Sequence record: MN850605.1
Reading direction: 5' to 3' (one strand)
Source: Escherichia phage fjerdesal
Length of the DNA: 64,000 bases
Every line of letters begins with the position of its first letter. Position 1 is the stretch's first letter. Under the pieces are notes generated by a model. It worked only from the letters and a program-made list of their open reading frames with translations. It was not told where the DNA came from and searched no databases. Positions 2,621 to 22,547 of this stretch are shown piece after piece. The translations under genes were made by a program, and so were the position numbers.

Positions 2621-3069
2621 TATTCATCTCGCTCGATAATAAATACGCCATTAACACGGTTGCAGTAATCTCTGCCTTCGTATCTGGCAGCATCACCATA
2701 TTCTGTGTATTTCTTGACAGAGCAAGGATTCTGACGACGCATGTCAATATCACACTGATTAATACCACCTGCATAGGGTAGTCCTGAAACAGAGCTTTTA
2801 ACAAGGTCGTCATAAACAGCTTTCAGAGACTTGAATCTGGAAGAGTTACGTAAATAAACACCACCAACCTTCTCATCTCCCATCTTGGCTACTTGAAAGA
2901 GTAAATATTTAAGAGCTTTGATGGCTGCTTTCTTTTCATCCTTTCCAGATTCTAGATAGAACCACTCTAGCACAGACTGCTCAATAAGAATTTCATCATT
3001 ATTAGTGTCTGTGCAGAGGATTCTTACTCTATCAAGAGGGTTATTGGCTGGGTCGCCTGTATAACACAT
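2620..3069 (-). CDS. hypothetical head completion protein
   Basis: 149-aa ORF immediately downstream of major capsid gene. Confidence 0.55.
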   Translation of the reverse strand: MCYTGDPANNPLDRVRILCTDTNNDEILIEQSVLEWFYLESGKDEKKAAIKALKYLLFQVAKMGDEKVGGVYLRNSSRFKSLKAVYDDLVKSSVSGLPYAGGINQCDIDMRRQNPCSVKKYTEYGDAARYEGRDYCNRVNGVFIIERDE

Positions 3070-3091
3070 TCATAACCCTCCTTACCTATCA

Positions 3092-4198
3092 TTACTCAGA
3101 GTCTGAGCGAACGTCAACCAGCAGTTGAGGACGTGTGCAGTATGGCAGCATGTAAGAGTGAGCTTCGAAGTCAATACCTTCATCACGGTCTTTTTCGTAT
3201 TCAAATACGTACAACTCCTGACCCAGAGTATTTGCGTAGCCCATCTTCGGACATGGAGCGTAAGCTACTTCAAAGATGTTGTTTGCTTCACCAAGCATAG
3301 AAACGTTAGGGAAAGCGTGCCCTACACCTACAGTTCCATCCTGAGTAACACCATCGATGCTAACCAGAGTATGGGTCTTGCCGCGCTTGTCTTTGAACTT
3401 ACCGTTGTACTGGACAAACTTAACACCACCGTAGTAGAACGTGTTCATATGAGCCTGAACACCATCAGAACCACCAGTTCTCAGAGAGCCAGTAATCTGT
3501 TGCCATGCCAGCGGAGTCTGCTGTGCAAGGTATGCGTCACGAATCTTCGGATGCTTGGTAAGTTTACTGAAGAAAGTTCTGTCAACAACTACGTGAATCT
3601 CTTCACCGTTGATTACAGTACCAGTCTTAGCTTCGTCTTCCATGTGCATACGTAGGTCTTCGATGTGAGCATCAATATCAGAGTTCGGATTGTCAAGGTC
3701 GAAGTAGATAGTCTTCTTAGTTACATCGAACTGTTTGTACAGGTCTGCGTACAGAACACCATTAGCGTCGATAACTTTACCCTTCAGAGCTTGCATGAAC
3801 AAGAACTCACGAGTAATATCGAACTTGGTGCGAATCTTCATCAGCTTCTTAGCACGAACGATAGCTTCAGTGGTTAGTTCATTTGCAGTACCTGGCTGAC
3901 GTACACCCTGAATCTCATCAGGAGTAATGCTTTCAACTTCCTTGAAGTACATCATTGGGAAGCTGATTTGACGAACACGCTCAGGAGCACTTGTTTCAGC
4001 TTTACGGCTAGTGCGGTCTACAGCATCAAGCAAGCTGATATCCCAATCTGTCAAGTCCATCAGGAAGGTTGTCTGAGTTTGTGGTGCTGAACGGAACAGA
4101 CCTAAGTTGGAAATATACCCATAAGTGTTTGGGATAGACTGGACTTCACGAGTCAGGTCAGCAAGTAAAAATCTGCTTTTTTCAGAATTAGTCAACAT
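3092..4198 (-). CDS. major capsid protein (HK97-fold, lambda gpE-like position)
   Basis: 368-aa ORF following protease and decoration-like gene; size and order typical of a major capsid protein. Confidence 0.8.
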   Translation of the reverse strand: MLTNSEKSRFLLADLTREVQSIPNTYGYISNLGLFRSAPQTQTTFLMDLTDWDISLLDAVDRTSRKAETSAPERVRQISFPMMYFKEVESITPDEIQGVRQPGTANELTTEAIVRAKKLMKIRTKFDITREFLFMQALKGKVIDANGVLYADLYKQFDVTKKTIYFDLDNPNSDIDAHIEDLRMHMEDEAKTGTVINGEEIHVVVDRTFFSKLTKHPKIRDAYLAQQTPLAWQQITGSLRTGGSDGVQAHMNTFYYGGVKFVQYNGKFKDKRGKTHTLVSIDGVTQDGTVGVGHAFPNVSMLGEANNIFEVAYAPCPKMGYANTLGQELYVFEYEKDRDEGIDFEAHSYMLPYCTRPQLLVDVRSDSE

Positions 4199-4620: not shown

Positions 4621-5967
4621 TTATTTGATAAGAGATTTTAGAGCATTCTGGAGAGCCAGTTTGCGTTGTTCAGCGGTGTCTTCGGAAGCATTCTTAGCTG
4701 GTTCTTTTTCTTCTTCAACCAAATCAGCTTCGCCGTCATTACCCACTTCTTCCATAGCGTTGGAATGTTCAAGAACAGCACCAGCAGTTTCTTTCAGCTT
4801 GGTAATTTCTGATTCTTTTTCTTCCATTGCAGAAGCATGGGACGCGATAGTTTCATTAAGTTTCTGGTTAGCACCTTCCATAGCATTCATAAACAGAACG
4901 CTCAGAGGGTTATCAAGACCAGCACCTAAAATAGCCGTTGCAGCTTCTTTTGCATCAAACCCAAAAGCTTCAGCAGAAGCAGAAATCTTATTAGTCAAAT
5001 CTGACAAAGCAGCTTCCTGTTCTTTAGCTTTCATTTGAGCAACCTGAAGACGCAAAGCTTCTAGTTCTTGCTTTTCTTGTTCAGTCATTTCTTCACCTGA
5101 ATTGTTAACGTTTAAACTTACAGGAGCCTCTTCAGAACCTTGTAAGTAATTTAAGAAATCATCTTGAGACATGATTGAGTTAATTAAACCAAGTTCAAGA
5201 GCTTCCTGAGCAGAATAAACATTCGCCTCAGTATTCTTTACAGCTTCTTCAGAGAGATTACGAGATTCGGCTACAAAACCTGTAAAGGTTGCGTAGGTAT
5301 CATTAATTCTCTTTTGAAGTCTTTCTTTGCTTTCTTCTGAAAGTGCTTGGAATGGTGAACCCATACCTTTAAACTCACCAGCTTTGATGACGTTAATTGT
5401 CACGCCATTCTTTTCAAATGCTTTAGTTAATTCCTGATGAACCATAATTACACCAATAGAACCAACATCTGCATCTGGTGATGCAATAATTTCTTCAGCA
5501 GAAGATGCAAGAGCGTATGCAGCGGAACAAGCGAACTCATCTACATAAGCAATAATTTTCTTTTGGCCTCTTGAAGCCATAATGTGACGTGCTAATTCAA
5601 AGCAACCTGAAGCTTCACCACCACCAGAATCAATGTGCAGAACAATAGTCTTGATTGACTCATCTGCTAAAGCTTCGTCAAAGCCTCTACGCAAACCTTC
5701 ATAAGAGCTTAATCCACCTGTACACATTGCATCAATGAATGTCATACGATGGGTTAAACCACCCATAATAGGGATAATAGCAATGTCATCTTTTACTTTT
5801 AAAAGACTTCTTGCTTCACCTTTGGGTTTATCAAAGTTTACTGCTGCTTGGACATCACCCAGCAATCTGTTATTCACATAAGTTGCTGCTGAGTGAGCTA
5901 ATGATTCAGTGGCTAGTAAAGGTTGGTTGAATAATCTATCAGCAAGTCTGAAGATATTCGAACTCAT
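4621..5967 (-). CDS. prohead protease (S49/ClpP-like) with C-terminal scaffold-like coiled coil
   Basis: N-terminal region with S49 peptidase-like motifs (IPIMGG..., DSGGGE...), C-terminal charged coiled-coil; located between portal and capsid genes. Confidence 0.75.
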   Translation of the reverse strand: MSSNIFRLADRLFNQPLLATESLAHSAATYVNNRLLGDVQAAVNFDKPKGEARSLLKVKDDIAIIPIMGGLTHRMTFIDAMCTGGLSSYEGLRRGFDEALADESIKTIVLHIDSGGGEASGCFELARHIMASRGQKKIIAYVDEFACSAAYALASSAEEIIASPDADVGSIGVIMVHQELTKAFEKNGVTINVIKAGEFKGMGSPFQALSEESKERLQKRINDTYATFTGFVAESRNLSEEAVKNTEANVYSAQEALELGLINSIMSQDDFLNYLQGSEEAPVSLNVNNSGEEMTEQEKQELEALRLQVAQMKAKEQEAALSDLTNKISASAEAFGFDAKEAATAILGAGLDNPLSVLFMNAMEGANQKLNETIASHASAMEEKESEITKLKETAGAVLEHSNAMEEVGNDGEADLVEEEKEPAKNASEDTAEQRKLALQNALKSLIK

Positions 5968-5978
5968 TTTTACTCACC

Positions 5979-6311
5979 CTATTTGTTTAAATCTACAGAG
6001 ACTGAAGAGATAACATAGATACCTTCTTCAGCAAAGAATTGAGGTTTGCTAAGAGCACCAGTTGCCACGCATTTATCGTTAGCATCCCACAAGCTATAGT
6101 GTGAGACCGTTGCAGAAGCTGGAACAGTAATATTAACTGTGTCTTCTGAGGCAATTAAGCCATTATCCGGTTCAGAAAAATAAATAGCCACTGGCTGAGT
6201 AACCTTATTTGCTGTAGGGTCTGCCGTTGGGTCTACATTGTGTAAAATAATAGTCGTTGGGGTTAGCGTGGCGAGGATTTTATTCTTACCATCAATAGTT
6301 AATGTTCCCAT
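5979..6311 (-). CDS. hypothetical protein (head module)
   Basis: 110-aa ORF. Confidence 0.5.
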   Translation of the reverse strand: MGTLTIDGKNKILATLTPTTIILHNVDPTADPTANKVTQPVAIYFSEPDNGLIASEDTVNITVPASATVSHYSLWDANDKCVATGALSKPQFFAEEGIYVISSVSVDLNK

Positions 6312-6811
6312 TAATTAAACCTTACTTTTTGTTTAAGGACTGTTGAATGGTTACCAGATTCATCTACCACATTTACAATCATATCATATACTTTGCCTTT
6401 GACAAGTACTTTGTAATCATTTTGTGAAAAAATGTATTCAAGTCTGTTTGTTTCTTTATTAACTGTCATTGGAGATTGAAATGCAGTGTCGAGGGTAATG
6501 AAAGCGGCTTCAATGCTATTAACATTGATACGTTTATTCTCGCAGTTATATAACTTTACACCCAAAAGGCATGAACTGTCAAATGGAATTTTAACAATTT
6601 CACTACAATTTCCTGAAATAAACGGTTTTCCACTCATTGGTGCATCAAGTAACCTACAAATAGTGAAAACGTCAGAGGCTCCACCATCACTTACATAACC
6701 TGAAAGGCTAACCCTTGAGCCAGCCTCTACAGATAATTTGTCAGTGATAATAAGAACACCTCTATACGAATGCACTCGTGTAGCATTTGAAATAGAGATA
6801 ACTTCAGCCAT
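6311..6811 (-). CDS. hypothetical protein (head module)
   Basis: 166-aa ORF directly downstream of portal. Confidence 0.5.
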   Translation of the reverse strand: MAEVISISNATRVHSYRGVLIITDKLSVEAGSRVSLSGYVSDGGASDVFTICRLLDAPMSGKPFISGNCSEIVKIPFDSSCLLGVKLYNCENKRINVNSIEAAFITLDTAFQSPMTVNKETNRLEYIFSQNDYKVLVKGKVYDMIVNVVDESGNHSTVLKQKVRFN

Positions 6812-8286
6812 TATTTATTTGCCTTATTTGCTGTGCTTGGGTCTTTCGCTGAAGGTGTCTTTGCAGTACCTTCTCCAGCGGTCTTATAACCATCTCCTGA
6901 GCGGCTTTGGCTATTTGGAGAAAGCTTTTCAGATACTGGCTGAGACTCATCAGCAGGAGGAAGACCAATATGCTCTCTAAGCTTGTTAGATAGCTCTTTG
7001 TCAACTTCCAAAGCACCTACTGCAACAGTCTTCTGGATATAAGAACCAATTGCTTCAAGGTCTGGAGTTTCGATATCATCATATGTGATTTGCACATGTT
7101 CTTCATCATCCCACATATTAAGAGCATAAGTCTGAGCAACTAAATCGCGGTTAATTACGTTCTTAATTTGCTTCAGCAGAATATCTACTGACATTGCTAG
7201 TAAGCTTGTCTTAGAATCTGCAAGAGAGAATGAACCATATTTTGACTGACCCATAGCAAGAACATCTGACATAAACGCCATCATAATCTGCTTAGAATAT
7301 CTGTCAATAATAGAACCTGTGTCGTATGCTTTAGCACCCTGTCTAGAAACTAATGAGAACTCAAAAATATCCTCTTTAGTATCTGGGTCGATATATCTAG
7401 GCCAGATTAAACCTGCTCTATCATTAGCAATCATATCGTTAACAACAGTTTTGCAGTATTGTACGAAAGCTTTCTTTTCAGGTTCTGCATTTTCATCCAG
7501 ATAATCTGGTGGTAACCCAATTTTTGGCATACCTACCAAGTCTCTTGAAACGCCAACAGCTTCATACTCTTCAATCTGTACTTTATACTTCCACGGTACA
7601 TAAGCATTAAGTAATGGTGAACGACCTTCTGGGTTTCCATATTCATCATCATACTTAAACAGCATGAATTTAGCTCGTGGAAGTTTTCTTGTTAGTGGTC
7701 TTTCTCCAAGATTAATTGCTCCAGCAATATGTGAAACATTTCTCAGATTCTGTCTAACACCAGTAACTCTTCTAAAGTCTTCGTCAAAATACCACTTATC
7801 AAGTGTTGATTGGTTTCTGATTGGTAATTTAGCCCATCCAATTAGACCATCATCAAATTTTGACTGGTACTTTCCTTTTTTGCCCTGTCGCTTCTTATAA
7901 ACTTTCTCGTTAACACAGAACCCATAAGTGCAGAATGACATTACAGAGTTAATAAAATCTGCCCAATCATGCTCCATGTCATCCATTAAAGAATTAAAGA
8001 AGTCTGCTCTTTCAAGCATTTTAGGGTCTTGCTCTTTTCCCTTTGGAGGTACAAATCTCCAGTTGACTTTTCTGACAAACATCTTAATAATATTTACAGA
8101 TGCTGCTACAGCAGGGTCACGCATCATTAATTGGAAAGTTTTAATACTTTCAGGGAACCTTAGTGCCTGACGAGGTTCTTCATAGATTCTTCCATTCTTA
8201 ACCTTCAGACCCAAAGAACCTACTTCACCCATTCTAAATGGTGGTAAGCTTTCTTGTGTTTCTGTAATATCTGCCATTCTTCTCAC
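6811..8286 (-). CDS. portal protein
   Basis: 491-aa ORF immediately downstream of large terminase; size and position. Confidence 0.8.
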   Translation of the reverse strand: MRRMADITETQESLPPFRMGEVGSLGLKVKNGRIYEEPRQALRFPESIKTFQLMMRDPAVAASVNIIKMFVRKVNWRFVPPKGKEQDPKMLERADFFNSLMDDMEHDWADFINSVMSFCTYGFCVNEKVYKKRQGKKGKYQSKFDDGLIGWAKLPIRNQSTLDKWYFDEDFRRVTGVRQNLRNVSHIAGAINLGERPLTRKLPRAKFMLFKYDDEYGNPEGRSPLLNAYVPWKYKVQIEEYEAVGVSRDLVGMPKIGLPPDYLDENAEPEKKAFVQYCKTVVNDMIANDRAGLIWPRYIDPDTKEDIFEFSLVSRQGAKAYDTGSIIDRYSKQIMMAFMSDVLAMGQSKYGSFSLADSKTSLLAMSVDILLKQIKNVINRDLVAQTYALNMWDDEEHVQITYDDIETPDLEAIGSYIQKTVAVGALEVDKELSNKLREHIGLPPADESQPVSEKLSPNSQSRSGDGYKTAGEGTAKTPSAKDPSTANKANK

Positions 8287-10117: not shown

Positions 10118-10164
10118 TATGTTTTCTCCAAATAATTAACCATGTTTCTCCTTAAAAAAGACGG

Positions 10165-10195
10165 CACAGAGACCGTCAAGGAGAAACCACAATGT
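10165..10195 (-). terminator. putative rho-independent terminator
   Basis: Minus strand GACGGTCTCTGTGCCGTC hairpin followed by TTTTTT. Confidence 0.5.
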
Positions 10196-10339: not shown

Positions 10340-10415
10340 TGGAGAATCCGAAGGGACTCGAACCCTTATAAACCTGTTTTGCAGACAGGCACATATCCAT
10401 TTCTGTCACGGATTC
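10340..10415 (-). tRNA. tRNA-Cys (anticodon GCA)
   Basis: Perfect 7-bp acceptor stem, T-arm AAGGG/TTCGAGT/CCCTT, anticodon loop CTGCAAA, U73, encoded CCA. Confidence 0.75.
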
Positions 10416-10419
10416 AAAT

Positions 10420-10512
10420 TGGAGGAAGATACCAGACTTGAACTGGTACACCGATTTCTCAGCTACTGGCAGTTTAGCAAACTGCTCCCTTACCTTTTAG
10501 GGTTAATCTTCC
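10420..10512 (-). tRNA. tRNA-Ser (anticodon GCT), type II
   Basis: Acceptor GGAAGAT/ATCTTCC, anticodon stem GCAGT/ACTGC loop TTGCTAA, long variable arm, T-arm ACCAG/TTCAAGT/CTGGT. Confidence 0.7.
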
Positions 10513-10513
10513 A

Positions 10514-11248
10514 TTATTTCTGTAATGCGCTCTTCATTTCTGGTGTTGCAATAGTGTCAATCACACCAGTTTTACAAGCATCGTCAAACCAGTCTGGTAA
10601 GATACCTGCTAAGAACCCATTGATATTCGTTTTAAGGTACTCTGCAATAAGGGCAGCTTCTTCTTCAATCATCTGCACAACTTCATCTGCATAAGCTGTA
10701 ATCTTTGAAATACCTTCATTAATCTTACTGACAGCTTGGTTAGCTAAATCAGAAACAGTATCAAGACCCTTATCAATAGCATCTTGTAAGTCACTTAACA
10801 CACCATTAACACTATCTAGTGTACTGTTCATCATGTCAATAGCTTTTTGACCATACTCTGTAGCAACACCCATGATACCACTGAATGGTTTACAACCAAC
10901 TTGTTCTCCTGCTGCACCCATAACATTGGAATACCCCTTTGCTACCTGCATACGTGATGAAAACTCATCAATAGATTTTTGACCGTAGTCTGTCAGAGTT
11001 TTAGTAGTTGCTGTAGTGCTTGTAAGGCTTGTTGTAAAGCTGTTTAGAAGGACTGTTGTAAGTCCAGCAGCAACAAGTTTCTCCTTCATTGTAGGGTCTG
11101 TTACAGAACTAATAGAGCTTACAAGTGATGTAGAAGCAGCTACGGTTCCACCGAGAACTGCTGCACCAGTAATAAGCGGGTTAGAGAACCCTTTACCAGT
11201 TTTTAAGAGATTAAAAATCTCCTTACCTTGTTCTGTCATCTCTTTCAT
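10514..11248 (-). CDS. hypothetical protein (Ser/Thr-rich)
   Basis: ORF 10514..11311 in track; start trimmed to ATG at 11248 because upstream part overlaps tRNA-Phe; AGGTG SD. Confidence 0.5.
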   Translation of the reverse strand: MKEMTEQGKEIFNLLKTGKGFSNPLITGAAVLGGTVAASTSLVSSISSVTDPTMKEKLVAAGLTTVLLNSFTTSLTSTTATTKTLTDYGQKSIDEFSSRMQVAKGYSNVMGAAGEQVGCKPFSGIMGVATEYGQKAIDMMNSTLDSVNGVLSDLQDAIDKGLDTVSDLANQAVSKINEGISKITAYADEVVQMIEEEAALIAEYLKTNINGFLAGILPDWFDDACKTGVIDTIATPEMKSALQK

Positions 11249-11266
11249 TAAGCACCTTTGAAATTG

Positions 11267-11343
11267 GTAGTCCAGTGGGATTTGAACCCTCTTCTCATGT
11301 TTTTCAGACACGCGCTTTAACCATATAAGCTACTTGGACTATA
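11267..11343 (-). tRNA. tRNA-Phe (anticodon GAA)
   Basis: T-loop TTCAAAT, anticodon stem CGTGT/ACATG loop CTGAAAA, D-stem GCTT/AAGC; 5' region slightly noncanonical. Confidence 0.6.
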
Positions 11344-11348
11344 AATTG

Positions 11349-11424
11349 GGGTGACCTACGGGATTTGAACCCGTATAGACCATGTTCACAGCATGGGTCA
11401 TTACCGTTTATGATAAGGCCACAT
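11349..11424 (-). tRNA. tRNA-His (anticodon GTG)
   Basis: Acceptor GTGGCCT/AGGTCAC, anticodon stem CCATG/CATGG loop CTGTGAA, C73, encoded CCA. Confidence 0.7.
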
Positions 11425-11455
11425 TTAAGGACTCTCGCAAGAATCCTTAGAAGTG

Positions 11456-11531
11456 GCAGCGGCATAAGGATTTGAACCTTAATAGGACAGCTTCAGAGGC
11501 TGCTGCATTGCCAGTTATGCTATACCGCTAA
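11456..11531 (-). tRNA. tRNA-Gln (anticodon CTG)
   Basis: D-stem GCAT/ATGC, anticodon stem GCAGC/GCTGT loop CTCTGAA, T-arm TAAGG/TTCAAAT/CCTTA, G73. Confidence 0.7.
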
Positions 11532-11536
11532 ATTTG

Positions 11537-11615
11537 GTACTCCATATCGGATTCGAACCGATACATAACACAGATTTTAAGTCTGGCCTCTCTGCCAATT
11601 GGAGTAATGGAGCAT
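11537..11615 (-). tRNA. tRNA with anticodon TAA (Leu-type anticodon, short variable arm)
   Basis: Acceptor GCTCCAT/ATGGAGT, T-arm ATCGG/TTCGAAT/CCGAT, anticodon loop CTTAAAA, A73; only 76 nt plus CCA. Confidence 0.6.
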
Positions 11616-11617
11616 TG

Positions 11618-11693
11618 GCGGGGGATGTTGGAATTGAACCAACTTCTTCGATTTCAAAGACCGAGGTTTTAACCTTGTAAACTAATCCCCTTT
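11618..11693 (-). tRNA. tRNA-Gln (anticodon TTG)
   Basis: T-arm GTTGG/TTCAATT/CCAAC, anticodon stem TCGGT/ATCGA loop CTTTGAA, G73, A1-C72 mismatch. Confidence 0.6.
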
Positions 11694-11699
11694 AAATCT

Positions 11700-12257
11700 T
11701 TACTTTCTCAGTGGATGAATAAAGAATGCCAACATAACTCTTTCCCTTGAGAATGCTCTTTCTTCTGGGACAACACTTTTTAGTTTCCATCCAATATAAA
11801 TTCTCCAGTAAAATTGTTTACCAAAGATTTTAATTGATGGGATAAAAGCGAATAATCCCCAAGCATTACTGTTCCACATTAGGAGATAACCTGTCTGATT
11901 ATCTTCGGGGTCAGAACTTACGTTGATATTACCTTTCCACTTAGTAACATCTCTTACATCTCTTCCTAATACATGGTAAGAGAAGTTATAAGCTTTGTTT
12001 CTCCAGAGCCATCCGACTCTTTGCATGTAGACACCTAGTTTACCAATCCATCTAATATTAGCCCATCTTTTAACGTGACCTTCATCACCATCAATTGGGT
12101 TGTCATATGTCTCCATCCATCTGAACCCGAAAGGTAAGTGTCCTTTCTTCTCACTGTAGAATGGAACTACAAAAGGTGCTAAGATAACTGCTAAGATTGC
12201 TGCAAATGGCTCTAACAAAGCTAAGAAAATCCATGAAGCATACTTCAAATATCTCAT
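11700..12257 (-). CDS. hypothetical membrane protein embedded in tRNA cluster
   Basis: 185-aa ORF with hydrophobic N-terminal segments. Confidence 0.55.
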   Translation of the reverse strand: MRYLKYASWIFLALLEPFAAILAVILAPFVVPFYSEKKGHLPFGFRWMETYDNPIDGDEGHVKRWANIRWIGKLGVYMQRVGWLWRNKAYNFSYHVLGRDVRDVTKWKGNINVSSDPEDNQTGYLLMWNSNAWGLFAFIPSIKIFGKQFYWRIYIGWKLKSVVPEERAFSRERVMLAFFIHPLRK

Positions 12258-12276
12258 CTAAATAGCCTCTTTAAAT

Positions 12277-12352
12277 TGGCGCAGGATAAGGGATTCGAAC
12301 CCCTATTAACAGCTTCGTAGACTGTTGCTCTATCCATTTGAACTAATCCTGC
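12277..12352 (-). tRNA. tRNA-Arg (anticodon ACG)
   Basis: Perfect acceptor GCAGGAT/ATCCTGC, anticodon stem ACAGT/GCTGT loop CTACGAA, encoded CCA. Confidence 0.75.
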
Positions 12353-12357
12353 AAAAT

Positions 12358-12435
12358 TGGTGTTCCAAGACGGATTCGAACCGTCACTAATACAAGGTTT
12401 GAGCTTGCATCCTCTGCCAATTGGGATACTGGAAC
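12358..12435 (-). tRNA. tRNA with anticodon CAA (Leu-type anticodon, short variable arm)
   Basis: Acceptor GTTCCAG/TTGGAAC, T-arm GACGG/TTCGAAT/CCGTC, anticodon stem GCAAG/CTTGT loop CTCAAAC, A73. Confidence 0.6.
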
Positions 12436-12436
12436 A

Positions 12437-12511
12437 TGGTACTCACTAAAGGACTTGAACCTTTTTCTTCATCTTGTAAGGGTGATGTTTTACCATATAA
12501 ACTAAGCGAGT
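12437..12511 (-). tRNA. tRNA-Val (anticodon TAC)
   Basis: D-stem GTTT/AAAC, T-arm AAAGG/TTCAAGT/CCTTT, anticodon loop CTTACAA, A73. Confidence 0.7.
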
Positions 12512-12518
12512 ATGAAAG

Positions 12519-12607
12519 AGGTCTGAAGTTGTGCCGCTAACTCAACTTCGTGGAATTTGTTACGGTCTTCAGTTGACTCAAAGCGGTCTTTCACTTGACC
12601 TCTGAAT
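12519..12607 (-). ncRNA. structured non-tRNA spacer element (GAGGTC...GACCTC closing stem, internal GAAGACCG motifs)
   Basis: 89-bp gap in tRNA array; terminal inverted repeat and internal hairpin, no canonical T-loop. Confidence 0.3.
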
Positions 12608-12683
12608 TGGTGCTCCCACAAGGACTCGAACCCTGATAAGTTGCTTACAAGGCAACCATAATAACCAATTATACGATAGGAGC
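12608..12683 (-). tRNA. tRNA-Thr (anticodon TGT)
   Basis: Anticodon stem GTTGC/GCAAC loop CTTGTAA, T-arm CAGGG/TTCGAGT/CCTTG, encoded CCA. Confidence 0.75.
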
Positions 12684-12690
12684 ATTAATT

Positions 12691-12765
12691 TGGAGCATCC
12701 AGAGGGAATCGAACCCTCAACCTCAGTTTGGAAGACTGTAATTTTCCCGTTTAAACTATGGATGC
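12691..12765 (-). tRNA. tRNA-Gly (anticodon TCC)
   Basis: Acceptor GCATCCA/TGGATGC, T-arm GAGGG/TTCGATT/CCCTC, loop CTTCCAA, U73. Confidence 0.75.
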
Positions 12766-12771
12766 ACTAAT

Positions 12772-12846
12772 TGGTGGAGTCACTGAGAATTGAACTCAGT
12801 TCCCAAGTTTGCAAAACTCGAATTTTAACCATATAAACTATGACCC
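12772..12846 (-). tRNA. tRNA-Ala (anticodon TGC)
   Basis: Acceptor with G3-U70 wobble (Ala identity), anticodon loop TTTGCAA, T-arm CTGAG/TTCAATT/CTCAG. Confidence 0.75.
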
Positions 12847-12854
12847 CCATTGTT

Positions 12855-12930
12855 TGGTACAGGTGGAGGGAATTGAACCCATCGTCTTACTGATTAAGAG
12901 TCAGCCGCATAACCATTTTGCTACACCTGC
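12855..12930 (-). tRNA. tRNA-Lys (anticodon CTT)
   Basis: Acceptor GCAGGTG/CACCTGT, anticodon stem GCTGA/TCAGT loop CTCTTAA, T-loop TTCAATT. Confidence 0.65.
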
Positions 12931-12937
12931 ATTAATT

Positions 12938-13014
12938 TGGTACACCTAGAGAGATTCGAACTCACACTGAGCAGATTCTAAGTCTGCTGCCTCTACCAGT
13001 TGGGCTATAGGTGC
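12938..13014 (-). tRNA. tRNA with anticodon TAG (Leu-type anticodon, short variable arm)
   Basis: Canonical D-arm GCC/AACTGGTAGA/GGC, perfect anticodon stem GCAGA/TCTGC loop CTTAGAA, T-loop TTCGAAT, A73. Confidence 0.65.
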
Positions 13015-13020
13015 ATTAAA

Positions 13021-13101
13021 TCTTTTTAGAGAACTTCTAAGAACCTGAGCAACAAGGTTCCACAACAAGCGACTAATAACCTTAGAAGCCCTCTAAAAAG
13101 A
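13021..13101. repeat. long inverted repeat (about 20-bp arms, about 40-nt loop) in tRNA cluster
   Basis: tctttttagagaacttctaag ... cttagaagccctctaaaaaga are reverse complements. Confidence 0.5.
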
Positions 13102-13268
13102 CCTAAATAGGTCTTTGCATAGTCTTGTTTAATCCGGTGACTAGAACCTTTGGAGAGCTTGATATTATCTCTTCTCCGTGACACCTACTAGGTGCTTTGA
13201 CAGTGTACGACAATACACGAGGGATAAACCGACAATGCGAACAAGCATGGACGGAGTAAATCTTATTA

Positions 13269-13358
13269 GGCGGTAAGTAAAGGAGTCGAACCCTCACCGT
13301 ATCTCTACAGTGGCAACAGTTTTCAAGACTGTTTGGCTGCCATTAGCCGCTACCTACC
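13269..13358 (-). tRNA. tRNA-Ser (anticodon TGA), type II
   Basis: Acceptor GGTAGGT/ACTTACC, anticodon stem ACAGT/ACTGT loop CTTGAAA, long variable arm, G73. Confidence 0.7.
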
Positions 13359-13371
13359 CCTAATAAGACTT

Positions 13372-13454
13372 TGGCATGGGACGGAGGAGTTGAACCCCTT
13401 TGAAACGGTTTTGGAGGCCGTTGCTCATGCCTTAGAGTCTTAACATCGTCCCAT
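13372..13454 (-). tRNA. tRNA-like gene, possibly tRNA-Trp (anticodon CCA) with atypical D-arm
   Basis: Perfect acceptor ATGGGAC/GTCCCAT, G73, encoded CCA, T-loop TTCAACT; anticodon stem AACGG/CCGTT enclosing 9-nt loop CCTCCAAAA. Confidence 0.45.
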
Positions 13455-13596
13455 ATTATAATTCGAAGCTTACCCTGTTATCTCAACACTGTCAAGCTTC
13501 TTCTCAGATTATTTACATGTTCTGGAAAACATGAGATACAGACCACCTCCCTACAGGAAGACCCGCTAAGGCCGTCTAAGTAATCTGCTAACTATT

Positions 13597-13673
13597 TGGT
13601 ACACCCTACAGGATTCGAACCTGTAACTAACGATTTAGAAGACCGTTGCTCTATCCAATTGAACTAAGGGTGC
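13597..13673 (-). tRNA. tRNA-Arg (anticodon TCT)
   Basis: D-arm GTTC/AATTGGATA/GAGC, anticodon stem ACGGT/ATCGT loop CTTCTAA, T-arm ACAGG/TTCGAAT/CCTGT. Confidence 0.75.
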
Positions 13674-13875
13674 ATTATCTTTAAAGACTCTCTTAGAAAG
13701 CCCTTAAAGATGCCCACCTTATTAATCATACCGTGGGCGAGTACGCCAAATTCTTTGATGAGGGATTGGAAGACCTCACTGGTGTTTAGCCTATCAAGCT
13801 ACTGCCAGAAAAACATTGTCGTTTGCATTTATTTTAAATTTGCAAAATAGACGCTACGCAACGAAAACTAAGGTT

Positions 13876-13904
13876 ACTATAAAGTAGTCACATCTCAATG
13901 TCAA
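13876..13904 (-). promoter_or_regulatory. sigma70-type promoter inside tRNA cluster (TTGACA-N17-TATAGT)
   Basis: Minus-strand TTGACATTGAGATGTGACTACTTTATAGT; reads toward tRNA-Arg(TCT) sub-cluster. Confidence 0.55.
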
Positions 13905-13919
13905 CAACTTTATTGAAAT

Positions 13920-13995
13920 TGGTACTGGTAGGTGGAATCGAACCACCGATGTTCCCTTATCAGGGGAGTGTTATAACCTTCTTAACTATACCAGC
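13920..13995 (-). tRNA. tRNA-Ile (anticodon GAT)
   Basis: D-arm GTTA/AGAAGGTTA/TAAC, T-arm GGTGG/TTCGATT/CCACC, loop CTGATAA. Confidence 0.7.
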
Positions 13996-13996
13996 T

Positions 13997-14073
13997 TGGA
14001 GGTTCAGATGGGAATCGAACCCACATTCATAGGGCTTATGAGACCCTTGCATTACCTTATCTGCGACTGAACC
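13997..14073 (-). tRNA. tRNA-Met (anticodon CAT)
   Basis: Acceptor GGTTCAG/CTGAACC, anticodon stem AGGGT/GCCCT loop CTCATAA. Confidence 0.7.
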
Positions 14074-14077
14074 ATAT

Positions 14078-14153
14078 TGGTAGAAGTGGAGGGATTCGAA
14101 CCCATCGCCTGTCAGATTAAAAGTCTGCCGCATCACCATTCTGCTACACTTCC
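14078..14153 (-). tRNA. tRNA-Lys (anticodon TTT)
   Basis: Acceptor GGAAGTG/CACTTCT, loop CTTTTAA, T-loop TTCGAAT. Confidence 0.65.
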
Positions 14154-14163
14154 ATTAAATTAT

Positions 14164-14297
14164 CTTTGTAGATAAGCTACCCAGACTTGCTTAAGGTCTG
14201 TAGCGATGTGCCTTTTTTGGGTTTAAATCTAGAATTTACCCATTCACCCTTTGTGGTCGCATACTCACAAGTAAGCTTAATAACTTATCTACAAAGG
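14164..14297. repeat. 13-bp perfect inverted repeat (ctttgtagataag / cttatctacaaag) separated by about 108 bp
   Basis: Exact reverse-complement arms at 14164-14176 and 14285-14297. Confidence 0.5.
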
Positions 14298-14299
14298 TA

Positions 14300-14440
14300 A
14301 TTACCAGACCGTTGTTTATCATCTTAAGTGCTACCATTACACCAACTCGACATCTGCCGAGTGAAGGAATCGAACCTTCGCCTTTTCTTTACCGGAGAAA
14401 TAGATTGTTTAAGTTTTGCTGTAAACGGCCTTCTGTAAAT
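14300..14440 (-). ncRNA. candidate Y-RNA-like element containing a circularly permuted tRNA-like module
   Basis: Minus strand order: T-arm GAAGG/TTCGATT/CCTTC (14363-14379), closed acceptor-like hairpin ACTCGGC-AGAT-GTCGAGT (14345-14362), D-arm-like GTG/TAATGGTAG/CAC (14328-14343); flanked by AGGCCGTT / AACGGTCT complementary segments; no anticodon arm. Confidence 0.35.
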
Positions 14441-14586
14441 TTGTTGAGCCAGACCAAGTTTTAAATTTTCAAAATTAAATTGGCTTGAAAATATCATACG
14501 TTCTTGCTGAATTTGGTCTTCTGCTCCTTTAAAGAATACTCGTAAGAACTCTTTAAGGGAGGGGCTAAATAGCCCTCTCAAAATTG

Positions 14587-14661
14587 GCGGCTACGATGAG
14601 ACTTGAACTCACATCATCTCCCGTGACAGGGGAGTATTTTCTCCAGTTAAACTACATAGCC
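14587..14661 (-). tRNA. tRNA-Asp (anticodon GTC)
   Basis: Acceptor GGCTATG/CGTAGCC, perfect anticodon stem CTCCC/GGGAG loop CTGTCAC, G73, encoded CCA. Confidence 0.75.
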
Positions 14662-14666
14662 TTTAT

Positions 14667-14754
14667 TGGTGTGCCGTGTAGGAGTCGAACCTACCGAGTC
14701 TCAATGACAAGGGATTTACAGTCCCCACCGCTACCATCTACGGGATAACGACAC
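14667..14754 (-). tRNA. tRNA-Tyr (anticodon GTA), type II
   Basis: T-arm GTAGG/TTCGACT/CCTAC, anticodon loop CTGTAAA, long variable arm. Confidence 0.7.
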
Positions 14755-14762
14755 ATTTAATT

Positions 14763-14839
14763 TGGCGGTTAGTCAGGGATTCGAACCCTGTGCCATTCGC
14801 TTAACAGGCGACCGCACATACCTTATGTGCTTCCTAACC
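14763..14839 (-). tRNA. tRNA-Asn (anticodon GTT)
   Basis: T-arm CAGGG/TTCGAAT/CCCTG, anticodon loop CTGTTAA, G73. Confidence 0.65.
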
Positions 14840-14917
14840 TTAATACATTGCCAGACCGTGTTTTTTCTTTTATCCGCAAAAAAGTATTTTGTTGCTGAAT
14901 ACGGTCTTCTGCAAAAT

Positions 14918-14994
14918 TGGAGGCGGGTGCAGGAGTCGAACCTGCCGATACCATGCTAATGAGACATGTGAGACGCCCTTTCTCTATACCCGCA
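14918..14994 (-). tRNA. tRNA with anticodon CAT (Met or lysidine-type Ile2)
   Basis: T-arm GCAGG/TTCGACT/CCTGC, anticodon stem CATGT/GCATG loop CTCATTA. Confidence 0.6.
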
Positions 14995-15085
14995 ATTCTT
15001 AATGACCAGACCAAATCTCTTCTTTGTCCGATTTACCTTCAGATGAATAAGATTAAGTTTGCTGTAATTGGTCTTCTGTCAAAAC

Positions 15086-15163
15086 TGGCGTTCCAGAAGG
15101 GATTTGAACCCTCAGATATCCACTTTGAAAGAGTGGTGACTATACCATTTTGTCTACTGGAAC
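15086..15163 (-). tRNA. tRNA-Glu (anticodon TTC)
   Basis: Acceptor GTTCCAG/CTGGAAC, perfect anticodon stem CCACT/AGTGG loop CTTTCAA, G73. Confidence 0.75.
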
Positions 15164-15170
15164 ATTAATT

Positions 15171-15247
15171 TGGTCTCTGTTGGAGGACTTGAACCTCCGG
15201 CCTTACCGCCCCAAACGGAACGCTCTACCAATCTGAGCTAAACAGAG
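15171..15247 (-). tRNA. tRNA-Pro (anticodon TGG)
   Basis: Perfect acceptor CTCTGTT/AACAGAG, D-arm GCTC/AGATTGGTA/GAGC, loop TTTGGGG, T-arm GGAGG/TTCAAGT/CCTCC. Confidence 0.75.
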
Positions 15248-15365
15248 ATAAACTTTTCAAACTCTATGTAACCACTTTAACATTATTTTTTAGTGGTTGT
15301 CAAGAACTTTTTTAAAATATTTTTCAGTATCTTAGAAAAGCTCTCATTTCGCTTCTATGTAGAAC

Positions 15366-15394
15366 ATATTAAAGGGTATTAAACACATTGTCAA
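15366..15394 (-). promoter_or_regulatory. sigma70-type promoter embedded in hairpin (TTGACA-N17-TAATAT), heading the tRNA cluster
   Basis: Minus strand AGGGTATTGACAATGTGTTTAATACCCTTTAATAT; hairpin arms AGGGTATT/AATACCCT flank the -35. Confidence 0.5.
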
Positions 15395-15412: not shown

Positions 15413-16828
15413 TTACCAGATATAACGGTCAATCATTACTGCTTTGAGCATTACACTGATTGGGTCAAACTTCTCACCACCAAGCAGAGCTTTTAAAGTG
15501 GCTGGAGAGAACCCTGATACCATTGCTACACCGTTATCCTTAACAGATACTTCGCAAGTACCATTACGGTTTGCTAAGTACCAGAATACCAGTTGTGGCA
15601 TCTCATATCCAGCTTTTTTGTACTTACTCTGAATTGCTTCAAAGTTTGTACGACCGTTAGCTCCATCAACCTGATTGAACTCCATATCGGAGAAGATGAT
15701 AAGCTTACTTGGCATATCTTTCTGAGTCAAGTTGTTTCTTTTACCTGTTTCAAGAATGCGGTCAAAAGCTGCTTGTAAGTTAGTTGAGCCATATTCAACG
15801 TGTCGCATCACCTGACGATGACGGTTTCGTAAATCACCACTCAGTTCGATGAAGTGAGGGTTTGTTGAATAAACCATTAACTCATTCTTAAAGCAACCTG
15901 TATTGCGTTCTGCTACATACAAGGCAAGTGATACACCAATATCCAGAGCAGTAATGGAGCCAAAATTCACCCAAGACATTGAACTTGATACATCAGACAT
16001 ACACAAGATGTTTTCACCTTCTGCCATCCAGTTTGGTAGTGCTTTCCACTGCTCATTAGCAACATCTGCATTACCATACTTGACAGATTTAATCACATCG
16101 TATGGGTAAACAGCACCAGCGTTAATCTTAGTCTCACCTTTTGATAAGGACTCGATGTAAGCTTTGTAACGCTCTCCATCTTTACGGTTAAACAGTTTTT
16201 GGTAACGTGCAGCAGCAAGTGAAGGAATCTTACTGTAGTCAATCTTACCAAACTCATTAGCAGAGATTTTTTGCTCAACTGTATCAGATAGTGCAGACAA
16301 CAGTGTGCGGTACTCTTTCTCACTCAAGTTGGCAAACTTGCAGAAACGTTTTACAAACTGCTTATGACGTGGTTTGACTCGTGGTAACCACTTAGCCGCC
16401 AAACCTGCTGTTGCAGGGTCTAGTAATGCTGCTTCTAAATGTTTGAAGGCATCTGTCTCGAAACGAGTACCTACGAAGATTTTGAAGTCATCAAAACGAC
16501 CAAGTTCTGCAATCTTATCCATAATGCGAAGAACCTGCGTAGACTCTAAAACTTTGTCTTCAATTGCTTGAAGCAAAACAGTTCTGAAGGCTTTACGCTC
16601 ACCCATACCTTCTCGTACATCTCGCATATGAAGCAAAATACGAACTGCAACATCAACATCCTCACGCAAAGCTTTGTAGAACAGGTCTGGTAAGATTTCT
16701 ACGTTGCTACGGCTTGAACCAGCAGCTTTGTAAAAGTCTACAAGAGCAGACATTGATGAAGTATGGTTTACAGCACCATTTTCAGTTCGACCTGCATGAA
16801 GGTGCGCATGTTTAAATAATTCGCTCAT
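15413..16828 (-). CDS. vWA-domain protein, possibly Ro60/TROVE-like (Rsr-like)
   Basis: 471 aa; MIDAS motif DVSSS (CMSDVSSSMSW) and downstream beta-strand LIIFSDMEF typical of vWA; N-terminal ~280 aa helical region with loose resemblance to Ro60 motifs (LVDFYKAAGSS, YPYDVIKSVKYG); no adjacent AAA+ partner. Confidence 0.6.
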   Translation of the reverse strand: MSELFKHAHLHAGRTENGAVNHTSSMSALVDFYKAAGSSRSNVEILPDLFYKALREDVDVAVRILLHMRDVREGMGERKAFRTVLLQAIEDKVLESTQVLRIMDKIAELGRFDDFKIFVGTRFETDAFKHLEAALLDPATAGLAAKWLPRVKPRHKQFVKRFCKFANLSEKEYRTLLSALSDTVEQKISANEFGKIDYSKIPSLAAARYQKLFNRKDGERYKAYIESLSKGETKINAGAVYPYDVIKSVKYGNADVANEQWKALPNWMAEGENILCMSDVSSSMSWVNFGSITALDIGVSLALYVAERNTGCFKNELMVYSTNPHFIELSGDLRNRHRQVMRHVEYGSTNLQAAFDRILETGKRNNLTQKDMPSKLIIFSDMEFNQVDGANGRTNFEAIQSKYKKAGYEMPQLVFWYLANRNGTCEVSVKDNGVAMVSGFSPATLKALLGGEKFDPISVMLKAVMIDRYIW

Positions 16829-21966: not shown

Positions 21967-22547
21967 TGTCCGAAGAGCAACAGGATATCATTCCACAAGT
22001 AACATTAGTCCAACATTTTGGAAACATTGAAGGGTGTGTTGCACTTTTTCAACCGAGTATCAATTCCCCTGCAAAAGTTTGCAAGTTGACTATGAATGTT
22101 AATAACATTAGTGTCTGCCTTGTTGATGAAGTCCAGTACTTCAAGTTTAATGACAGAGAGGTTGATGCTGCACTATTGAAGTACCGAGCAAGCCTAGAAA
22201 AAGACATCGACCACAAAGAACTTGTAACACTGTTTGGTGACCTTCACAAGCTTCTTGAAAAGGTTATTAAGCGCACATATTACATGAACAATGGTTCAAT
22301 CATCACCACTTTGATTTCACCATGTATTTCAGAGCCAATTTTAACTGATGATGGTGGATACTACGTGGTAGCATCAGCAGATTCTGATTGGTGGATGAAG
22401 AACACAGCACTTAAAACAGTGATTGATGCTATCCGTGAACACATCCCTTCATTCAGCCCGTGGAAAGGTAAAAGTGATGATTTCATTGCACTATTGAGTG
22501 AAGAGAGTAACAAGCGCAGTGCATTACTGCCTAAAAAATACTCTTGA
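21966..22547 (+). CDS. hypothetical protein
   Basis: 193-aa ORF. Confidence 0.5.
   Translation: MSEEQQDIIPQVTLVQHFGNIEGCVALFQPSINSPAKVCKLTMNVNNISVCLVDEVQYFKFNDREVDAALLKYRASLEKDIDHKELVTLFGDLHKLLEKVIKRTYYMNNGSIITTLISPCISEPILTDDGGYYVVASADSDWWMKNTALKTVIDAIREHIPSFSPWKGKSDDFIALLSEESNKRSALLPKKYS

Follow-up and report, generated by a model that had tools for sequence, protein, structure and literature searches.

Three tRNA-Leu genes without the long variable arm in a Felix O1-like phage, and their counterparts in distant phages

Can a tRNA that carries a leucine anticodon but no long variable arm serve as a leucine tRNA in an enterobacterial cell? The question is raised by three genes, with anticodons UAA, CAA and UAG, in a tRNA array of Escherichia phage fjerdesal (MN850605.1). 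We analyzed a 64,000-nt stretch of this record, here called the window, which derives from a Felix O1-like myophage of E. coli (Ounavirinae, Felixounavirus). According to a review, tRNA-Leu has a long variable arm everywhere except in animal mitochondria (PMC9976931); the published exception is one Streptomyces type I tRNALeu gene (PMC6614811). A previous interpretation of the window, made from its letters alone (the sequence-only reading), left two possibilities: unusual type I Leu isoacceptors, or anticodon-swapped tRNAs charged with another amino acid. The evidence below favors the former. We think it likely that the three genes encode functional class I Leu isoacceptors, which the leucyl-tRNA synthetase (LeuRS) of the host, E. 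coli or Salmonella, is predicted to charge.

ARAGORN called all three genes as tRNA-Leu, with the same isotype and anticodons as the sequence-only reading. Two of the intervals in that reading were exact (12358–12435 and 12938–13014), and the third, 11537–11615, was off by 2 nt (ARAGORN, 11535–11613 on the minus strand). The Rfam tRNA model, with a gathering score of 29 bits, covers each gene end to end (Table 1). Parsing by hand and by script gave variable regions of 7 nt (GUUAUGU), 6 nt (AUUAGU) and 5 nt (UCAGU) for the UAA, CAA and UAG genes, respectively. A class II tRNA has a variable arm of at least 10 nt with a stem; in regions of this size a stem is impossible, and the three genes are outside that class. 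Among 493 parsed tRNA-Leu genes, variable-region length is bimodal (4–7 nt versus 9–25 nt), and the genes of E. coli, T4 and T5 have 13–15 nt. Within the same array, long arms are retained by the tRNA-Ser genes (93 and 90 nt) and by tRNA-Tyr (88 nt). Neither a long arm nor another anticodon frame emerged for the three Leu genes from ARAGORN, Rfam or ViennaRNA, and ViennaRNA folded the CAA and UAG sequences as cloverleaves.

The type I cloverleaf of 74–76 nt proposed in the sequence-only reading (76, 75 and 74 nt without CCA by ARAGORN) is also backed by covariation. We used an alignment (A1) of 23 tRNA-Leu genes, comprising the three window genes, 13 short tRNA-Leu from seven distant phages, and a long set from E. 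coli K-12 (leuV, leuZ, leuW and leuX), T4, T5 and one Enterococcus phage. With a 3-bp D stem, 97.8% of cells in A1 were paired, versus 37–46% in slid controls. Both sides had changed in 18 of 20 pairs, and none of 500 shuffles reached the covariation score. Short and long genes align along their whole length, save for a clean gap of 8–10 columns at the arm. Common to both forms are T8, the 3-bp D stem, U48, a TTCGA T loop, A73 and an 11-nt D loop of the form N-A14-A15-Y-Y-G18-G19-Y-A-R-A.

Apart from the arm, is the body of these tRNAs that of a leucine tRNA? E. coli LeuRS requires A73, U8:A14, A15:U48, the position of G18G19, A20a, and the U54:A58 and D/T-loop pairs (PMC9976931). The anticodon and the long arm are dispensable. 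The E. coli enzyme still charges and edits an engineered minimal tRNALeu from which both the variable arm and the anticodon arm have been removed, given A73 and the D/T-loop interaction (PMC9976931). That molecule is a laboratory construct, whereas the window genes are natural, conserved and endowed with a complete anticodon arm. Parsing found A73 in all three, as the sequence-only reading had it, and in 490 of the 493 parsed tRNA-Leu genes. Also present in all three are T8, A14, A15 and U48, giving U8:A14 and the A15:U48 Levitt pair; U48 occurs in 99% of short-armed Leu genes. The D arms read CUC/CAAUUGGCAGA/GAG, UCC/CAAUUGGCAGA/GGA and GCC/CAACUGGUAGA/GGC, in the register seen in E. coli, with G18G19 correctly positioned and A20a present in an 11-nt loop on a 3-bp stem. 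The T loop is GTTCGAATC in each case and contains U54, U55, C56 and A58, the partners for the D/T elbow. The anticodons lie within 7-nt loops with U33. Position 1 pairs with 72 as G1:U72 in the UAA and UAG genes, and the UAG tRNA has one U/U mismatch in the T stem. In the anticodon loop of tRNA-Leu(CAA), CUCAAAC, C38 interrupts the A36-A37-A38 run of the host.

Set beside the type II tRNA-Leu of E. coli (leuQPV, leuZ, leuW and leuX), T4 and T5, the window genes are alike in their Leu anticodons, A73, U8:A14, A15:U48, 3-bp D stem, 11-nt D loop, G18G19 position, A20a and T-loop partners. They differ in the variable region (5–7 versus 13–15 nt) and in the core, with A9 instead of G9, C12:G23 instead of G:C, and C13 instead of G or A13. 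We combined part of the common body into a register-aware set: A14A15, U48 and A73, plus a G19 that precedes the anticodon by 16 nt and a D stem of 3 bp in which 13/22 are unpaired. When scored on 2011 ARAGORN-called tRNAs from all fetched loci, the set was present in 429 of 489 (88%) tRNA-Leu, made up of 248 of 270 long and 181 of 219 short genes. Only 1% of tRNAs of other isotypes (16 of 1522) had it. All three window genes have it. Isotype scoring, which had been suggested as a check, points the same way: in addition to the ARAGORN calls, published tRNAscan-SE scores for the homologues in Sf14, a Shigella phage of the related genus Mooglevirus, place the Leu model first for all three (67.4, 49.1 and 60.2; PMC12482277). 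The anticodon loops of two of the three Sf14 genes are identical to those in the window. The Sf14 paper is silent on the variable arm (PMC12482277).

These observations must be weighed against the possibility that the genes are class I tRNAs whose anticodons shifted. They would then descend from a Lys-, Thr- or Trp-like ancestor and be charged with another amino acid, and UUA, UUG and CUA would be ambiguous or have a new meaning. Some resemblance to other isotypes does exist. The D-arm string AAYYGGYAGA occurs in 50 of 1686 non-Leu tRNAs, mostly Lys, Gln, Asn, Trp and Thr; the runner-up isotypes in Sf14 are Lys and Ile2; and the A9/C12:G23/C13 core resembles a class I core. The plain D-loop string was dropped as a Leu marker for its lack of specificity, and the register-aware set was used instead. 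What is rare among non-Leu tRNAs is the correct register, with a D stem of 3 bp, G19 lying 16 nt from the anticodon, U48 and A73; all three window genes have it. Moreover, LysRS, IleRS, ArgRS, ValRS and PheRS need anticodon bases that are absent here (general knowledge and PMC9976931), and the type II tRNALeu of the host reads the same codons as Leu anyway.

Codon meaning was tested on alignments of NrdA, NrdD and NrdB, for which the phage and E. coli proteins are 24–34% identical. Codons TTA, TTG and CTA stood opposite an E. coli Leu in 30 of 74 cases (41%), with Ile, Val and Phe next, as compared with 26 of 81 (32%) for the other Leu codons. There was no sign in these alignments of an alternative meaning for UUA, UUG or CUA. 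Because the three codons show no other meaning, charging with another amino acid is no serious option; this half of the sequence-only reading found no support, and we give the anticodon-shift idea almost no credence.

The same codons are heavily used by the phage. In 40 long open reading frames (ORFs) of the window, Leu is encoded by TTA (24.8%), TTG (15.1%), CTT (28.2%), CTC (5.4%), CTA (11.0%) and CTG (15.5%), so that TTA, TTG and CTA together account for 51% of Leu codons. In nrdA, nrdD and nrdB, 47% of the phage's Leu codons are one of these three, versus 8% in the E. coli K-12 orthologues, where CTG makes up 77%. Use of UUA, UUG and CUA is thus ∼6-fold higher in the phage than in the host for orthologous genes. 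The Leu-type body, the Sf14 isotype scores and this codon bias all argue for the first possibility, namely that type I Leu isoacceptors would supply UUA, UUG and CUA for an AT-rich genome.

The three genes are strongly conserved. The 5-kb array region matches 367 phage records, with 99.2–99.7% identity to phages Tribble, heid and Barry and 95–99.7% identity to Felixounavirus genomes, in which three tRNA-Leu are annotated. For the array as a whole, 99% identity is reached in just 3 of the 367 records. By comparison, of 263 phage records that match tRNA-Leu(UAA), 215 do so at 99% identity or more; for tRNA-Leu(CAA), 248 of 291 do so at 95% or more. In Erwinia phage Roscha1 (Kolesnikvirus, of the same subfamily), the three tRNA-Leu are also short, at 77–78 nt with a variable region of 5 nt. 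Their acceptor stems are wholly unlike those of the window, with pairing kept. This pattern indicates that purifying selection acts on the three Leu genes as tRNAs.

Might the conserved product be a tRNA-like RNA that acts outside translation? Such RNAs could be decoys or sponges for tRNA-targeting nucleases or tRNA-binding defence proteins, or the genes could be decaying pseudogenes. Phage tRNAs are known to counter tRNA-targeting defences (PMC10264068, PMC11555353), the Felix O1 paper lists some tRNAs of the array as pseudo, and E. coli LeuRS failed on one type I tRNALeu in vitro (PMC6614811). Near-invariance across hundreds of genomes together with compensatory stem changes speaks against this explanation. 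Every LeuRS identity element, the intact anticodon loops and the encoded CCA have been retained, which is not expected of a pseudogene, and the three anticodons match exactly the codons enriched in the phage. We therefore regard a role outside translation as quite improbable.

Our preferred account, that the genes provide working Leu isoacceptors, implies a series of steps, which we infer from gene structure and from work on E. coli LeuRS. The three tRNAs would be transcribed along with the rest of the array and would mature with their encoded CCA. Host LeuRS would then leucylate them by way of A73 and the elbow where the D and T loops meet. On the ribosome, the UAA tRNA would read UUA and UUG, the CAA tRNA would read UUG, and the UAG tRNA would read CUA and, by wobble, other CUN codons. 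In this way the tRNAs would supply codons that are common in the AT-rich phage and rare in its host.

Several points weigh against this account. Two concern folding: the minimum-energy structure of the AU-rich UAA sequence in ViennaRNA is not a cloverleaf, a predicted misfold to which we give little weight, and the UAA and CAA genes are among the lowest Rfam scorers within the array. Another concerns the anticodon loop of tRNA-Leu(UAG), which is CUUAGAA in the phage (C32, A37, A38) and UUUAGGU in E. coli (G37). G37 of CUN-reading tRNALeu is the site of m1G37, a modification that the phage tRNA would then be without. The isotype margin for the UAG gene of Sf14 is thin (Leu 67.4, Ile2 65.7, Lys 63.4; PMC12482277). 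Most directly, E. coli LeuRS failed to charge a transcript of the type I tRNALeu(CAA) of Streptomyces coelicolor in vitro, and Fan et al. (2019) state that the enzyme charges only type II tRNALeu (PMC6614811). Theirs is the only direct test of E. coli LeuRS on a natural type I tRNALeu that we found in the searchable literature. In the crystal structure of the E. coli LeuRS–tRNALeu complex, moreover, the C-terminal domain contacts arm residues 47f–47i (PMC6614811). However, because S. coelicolor tRNALeu(CAA) has C48 (PMC6614811), it lacks the required A15:U48 pair. The window tRNAs and 99% of the short phage genes have U48, and we therefore judge that the Streptomyces result may not be transferable to them.

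In other respects, the Streptomyces tRNA is a close published parallel to the window genes: it, too, has a short (5-nt) loop on a Leu-type body, and it coexists with type II tRNALeu and a single LeuRS (PMC6614811). Short tRNA-Leu(UAA/CAA) genes of Actinomycetota share the A9/C12:G23/C13 core and reach 68–79% identity to the window tRNAs. Unlike the Streptomyces case, the window genes are phage-borne, represent three isoacceptors together and function, if they do, in an enterobacterial host; two of their three loops are 6–7 nt. Animal mitochondrial tRNA-Leu is also type I, lacks the long arm and is recognized via A73 and A14 (PMC9976931). It has a degenerate, floppy structure and a dedicated mitochondrial LeuRS, in contrast to the canonical D and T loops of the phage tRNAs.

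Are the window genes merely host genes from which the arm was recently removed? Signature positions in the core separate short from long tRNA-Leu. Position 9 is A in 66% of short genes and G in 98–99% of long genes; positions 12:23 are C:G in 71–73% of short genes and G:C in 95–100% of long genes; and position 13 is C in 70% of short genes and G or A in long genes. In class I tRNAs, the bases at 9, 12, 13 and 23 join the variable loop in core triples. All three window genes carry A9, C12:G23 and C13, together with a 4–7 nt loop ending in U48. This core is found in 100 phage and 11 bacterial short tRNA-Leu genes. Identity between the window genes and E. coli tRNA-Leu averages 47–57% outside the arm, and the best matches of the window genes are short genes of other phages and of Actinomycetota (0.68–0.85 identity). 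For these reasons, namely the core, the low identity to E. coli and the location of the best matches, we conclude from the comparison that the window tRNAs are not recent deletions of host genes.

For short genes, the nearest neighbor from another locus was of the same type in 177 of 207 cases; for long genes, in 243 of 259. The evidence for a lineage is this nearest-neighbor test plus the four signature positions, rather than a resolved tree. Global identity was rejected as evidence of clades, as it separates the types weakly (means of 0.59 within type I, 0.64 within type II and 0.57 between). Judged by the neighbor test and the signature positions, the window genes belong to a distinct short-armed lineage common to many phages and to chromosomal tRNA-Leu of Actinomycetota. 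A second short group of 46 phage genes keeps the long-form core, G9/G12:C23, as seen in Aeromonas phage TS3, which is related to T5. Since short tRNA-Leu are of two core types, the arm has been lost more than once.

How widespread is the short form? A sensitive BLAST search with the UAG gene returned equally short annotated tRNA-Leu in very distant phages, whose arrays we fetched and scanned with ARAGORN. Short tRNA-Leu, of 74–78 nt, were present in Mycobacterium phage Ghost (three), Streptomyces phage Elmer (two), Pseudomonas phage vB_PseuGesM_254 (two), Cronobacter phage CR3 (two), Lactobacillus phage LpeD (two), Aeromonas phage TS3 (three), the Prochlorococcus cyanophage P-RSM6 (one) and crAss-like phage cr111_1 (two); Enterococcus phage Bop has one short and one long tRNA-Leu. 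The short form thus occurs in phages of at least seven host groups. In all these distant phages, tRNA-Ser is 84–95 nt. T4 and T5 have a long tRNA-Leu (87 and 85 nt, respectively), which may be the reason that the short form drew no comment. The array of Enterococcus phage Bop also includes a tmRNA (tag AKNEELLAVA; 12301–12648 of the fetched locus), and TS3 has a CUA-anticodon tRNA annotated as Pyl (3065–3139 of the fetched locus), which by its anticodon would read UAG (amber).

To cover viral contigs and bacteria, IMG/VR and GTDB were searched with a pattern that combined an NAR anticodon with a Leu-type D loop and a T loop of GTTCGA, the gap being left free so that both forms could match. The IMG/VR fractions come from the first 120 contig stretches in database order and are conditioned on the pattern; they are estimates rather than a census. 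Of 200 tRNA-Leu genes among the matches listed, 71 (36%) were short (≤80 nt), as were 5 of 28 tRNA-Tyr genes. Among the same matches, the short share of tRNA-Leu was 41% in stretches with at least 5 tRNAs and 43% in those with at least 10, which are true arrays and not host tRNAs at prophage ends. The counts of short tRNA-Ser were 0 of 58 (among the matches listed) and 1 of 84. Streptomyces phage Elmer has an annotated 72-nt tRNA-Tyr (22007–22078 of the fetched locus) beside one of 83 nt; the short one was not called by ARAGORN. Two long-armed tRNAs of 85–86 nt with a D-loop string that matches the simple Leu-type motif were also seen in IMG/VR contigs, one with anticodon UUU (Lys) and A73, the other with GUU (Asn) and G73. 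These may be anticodon-shifted class II tRNAs of viral contigs.

In the GTDB sample, which took one genome per species and is likewise conditioned on the pattern and no census, 12 of 128 tRNA-Leu genes were short. Seven of these are single chromosomal UAA or CAA genes in Actinomycetota, by record title: Nocardioides (three), Gordonia, Arcanobacterium, Herbiconiux and Saccharothrix. Four lie on two contigs of Planctomycetota metagenome-assembled genomes (MAGs), three of them in one cluster, and one is doubtful, without a Leu-type D arm. No short tRNA-Leu was found in sampled GTDB contigs of other groups, including Pseudomonadota, Bacillota and Bacteroidota. The Planctomycetota cluster consists of four tRNAs, among them the three short tRNA-Leu (CAG, UAA and GAG; 3550–3794 of the stretch fetched from JBCCHQ010000007.1). 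It resembles an array of the phage type; the contig, binned as bacterial, may belong to a phage and be mis-binned, or the cluster may lie in a prophage.

Why is the arm missing so often from phage tRNA-Leu? Seryl-tRNA synthetase (SerRS) needs the long arm and selects its tRNAs by it, and LeuRS does not. The arm is lost often in Leu, sometimes in Tyr and essentially never in Ser, a pattern that fits this difference between SerRS and LeuRS. One explanation is that the short arm has no function of its own: it would be ignored by bacterial LeuRS, and its deletion would be neutral and tolerated in compact phage genomes. Consistent with this, the arm is dispensable for E. coli LeuRS (PMC9976931); it has been kept by tRNA-Ser, whose synthetase needs it; at least two core types point to repeated loss; and T4 and T5 do with the long form. 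The dominant short class, by contrast, has coordinated changes in its core (A9, C12:G23, C13), and that core, common to phages of unrelated hosts and to Actinomycetota, looks like a maintained and spreading design. Short genes form 36–43% of viral-contig tRNA-Leu among the matches listed, yet in the GTDB sample they occur only in Actinomycetota and on the two Planctomycetota MAG contigs. The 10 nt saved per gene would be a negligible gain. On balance, we find neutral loss quite plausible, without being convinced of it.

The isotype pattern is compatible with neutral loss and also with selection for portability or for escape from toxins. A more tentative proposal is that loss of the arm is an adaptation of mobile tRNA-Leu genes. 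Pared down to A73 and the elbow, which bacterial LeuRS enzymes are known to read, such a tRNA might work in any host, would be safe from mis-serylation by a foreign SerRS, and would escape host factors that dock on the arm. If so, the short form might be a design typical of phages, which originated repeatedly and was spread among phages of many phyla, though we hold this, too, with considerable doubt. There is a precedent for arm-dependent recognition in the MenT3 toxin, which acts on mycobacterial tRNA-Ser (PMC11541572). In the searchable literature, we found no link between any E. coli defence system and the long arm. Human SLFN11 prefers type II tRNAs. A link to bacterial Schlafen proteins was considered and rejected, as the bacterial enzymes in papers from 2026 cleave numerous tRNAs, in the anticodon arm or the T loop, without any preference for the long arm.

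The three Leu genes are part of an array of 26 tRNA genes (Table 1). Encoded CCA ends all of these except tRNA-Ser(UGA) (13269–13358), for which the ARAGORN call ends in ...GCC. Two calls in the array are weak: tRNA-Met(CAU) (14918–14994, minus strand) has no Rfam match at E ≤ 1, and tRNA-Tyr(GUA) (14667–14754, minus strand) falls below the Rfam tRNA gathering score and matches only the tRNA-Sec model (29.6 bits). In the Felix O1 genome paper, the Tyr gene is marked as pseudo, and a Met gene is given a Cove score of 28.9. Sub-threshold tRNA-like matches in the spacers at 14362–14412 (tRNA model, 22 bits, partial) and 13378–13452 (tRNA-Sec model, 23 bits), both on the minus strand, may be remnants of decayed tRNA genes.

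Table 1. Coordinates in the window of the tRNA array, its three tRNA-Leu genes and associated features.
Feature	Position	Strand	Evidence	Remarks
26-tRNA gene array	10340..15247	−	ARAGORN, Rfam	
tRNA-Leu(UAA)	11535..11613	−	ARAGORN; Rfam 47.5 bits	79 nt with CCA, 76 nt without
tRNA-Leu(CAA)	12358..12435	−	ARAGORN; Rfam 44.0 bits	78 nt with CCA, 75 nt without
tRNA-Leu(UAG)	12938..13014	−	ARAGORN; Rfam 57.3 bits	77 nt with CCA, 74 nt without
DUF7217 ORF	10514–11311	−	Pfam	Inside array; function not assigned
DUF7338 ORF	11700–12257	−	Pfam	Inside array; function not assigned
Two sigma-70-like promoter matches	15274..15394	−	Consensus matches; weak	Possible array promoters, upstream of first tRNA (Pro)
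Intrinsic-terminator-like hairpin and T run	10160..10177	−	Weak	Downstream of last tRNA (Cys)

Sites matching the promoter consensus number 17 in the region, versus 12.0 ± 3.6 in shuffles. Both DUF ORFs inside the array are conserved, and the 5′ end of the DUF7217 ORF overlaps tRNA-Phe (11265–11340). In phage heid, an HNH endonuclease gene is inserted in the array (4792–5190 of the fetched locus); it is absent from the window (∼13674–13919), and the BLAST match is split in two around it. Directly upstream of the array is an ORF (15413–16828, minus strand) with DUF2828 and DUF7788 domains, labelled 'vWFA protein' in phage heid. Within its own tRNA array, Streptomyces phage Elmer encodes a 'Ro-like RNA binding protein' (5826–7454 of the fetched locus). 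A protein of the RNA-quality-control type may thus be a recurring associate of phage tRNA arrays.

Part of this picture is already known: the genes are annotated as tRNA-Leu in hundreds of GenBank records, and type I tRNALeu has been described from mitochondria and Streptomyces. In the full-text-searchable literature, including recent phage-tRNA papers but not subscription-only work, we found no description of short-armed tRNA-Leu in phages or of its carriage by coliphages. For the window itself, the finding is real and slightly unusual, and the tRNAs likely have an ordinary function; the wider pattern is the more interesting part. Three strongly conserved short tRNA-Leu are present in a well-known group of E. 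coli and Salmonella phages that includes phages used for typing and therapy. If they are charged in E. coli, they would be a natural test of which elements LeuRS really needs, their structural features would join the list of differences between phage and host tRNAs, and they would provide a compact scaffold, indifferent to anticodon, of possible use in engineering. Should they go uncharged, a large class of genes annotated as phage tRNA-Leu would have some other role. And if the loss of the arm is indeed adaptive, it would follow that natural type I tRNALeu is charged by E. coli LeuRS, which the published statement denies (PMC6614811).

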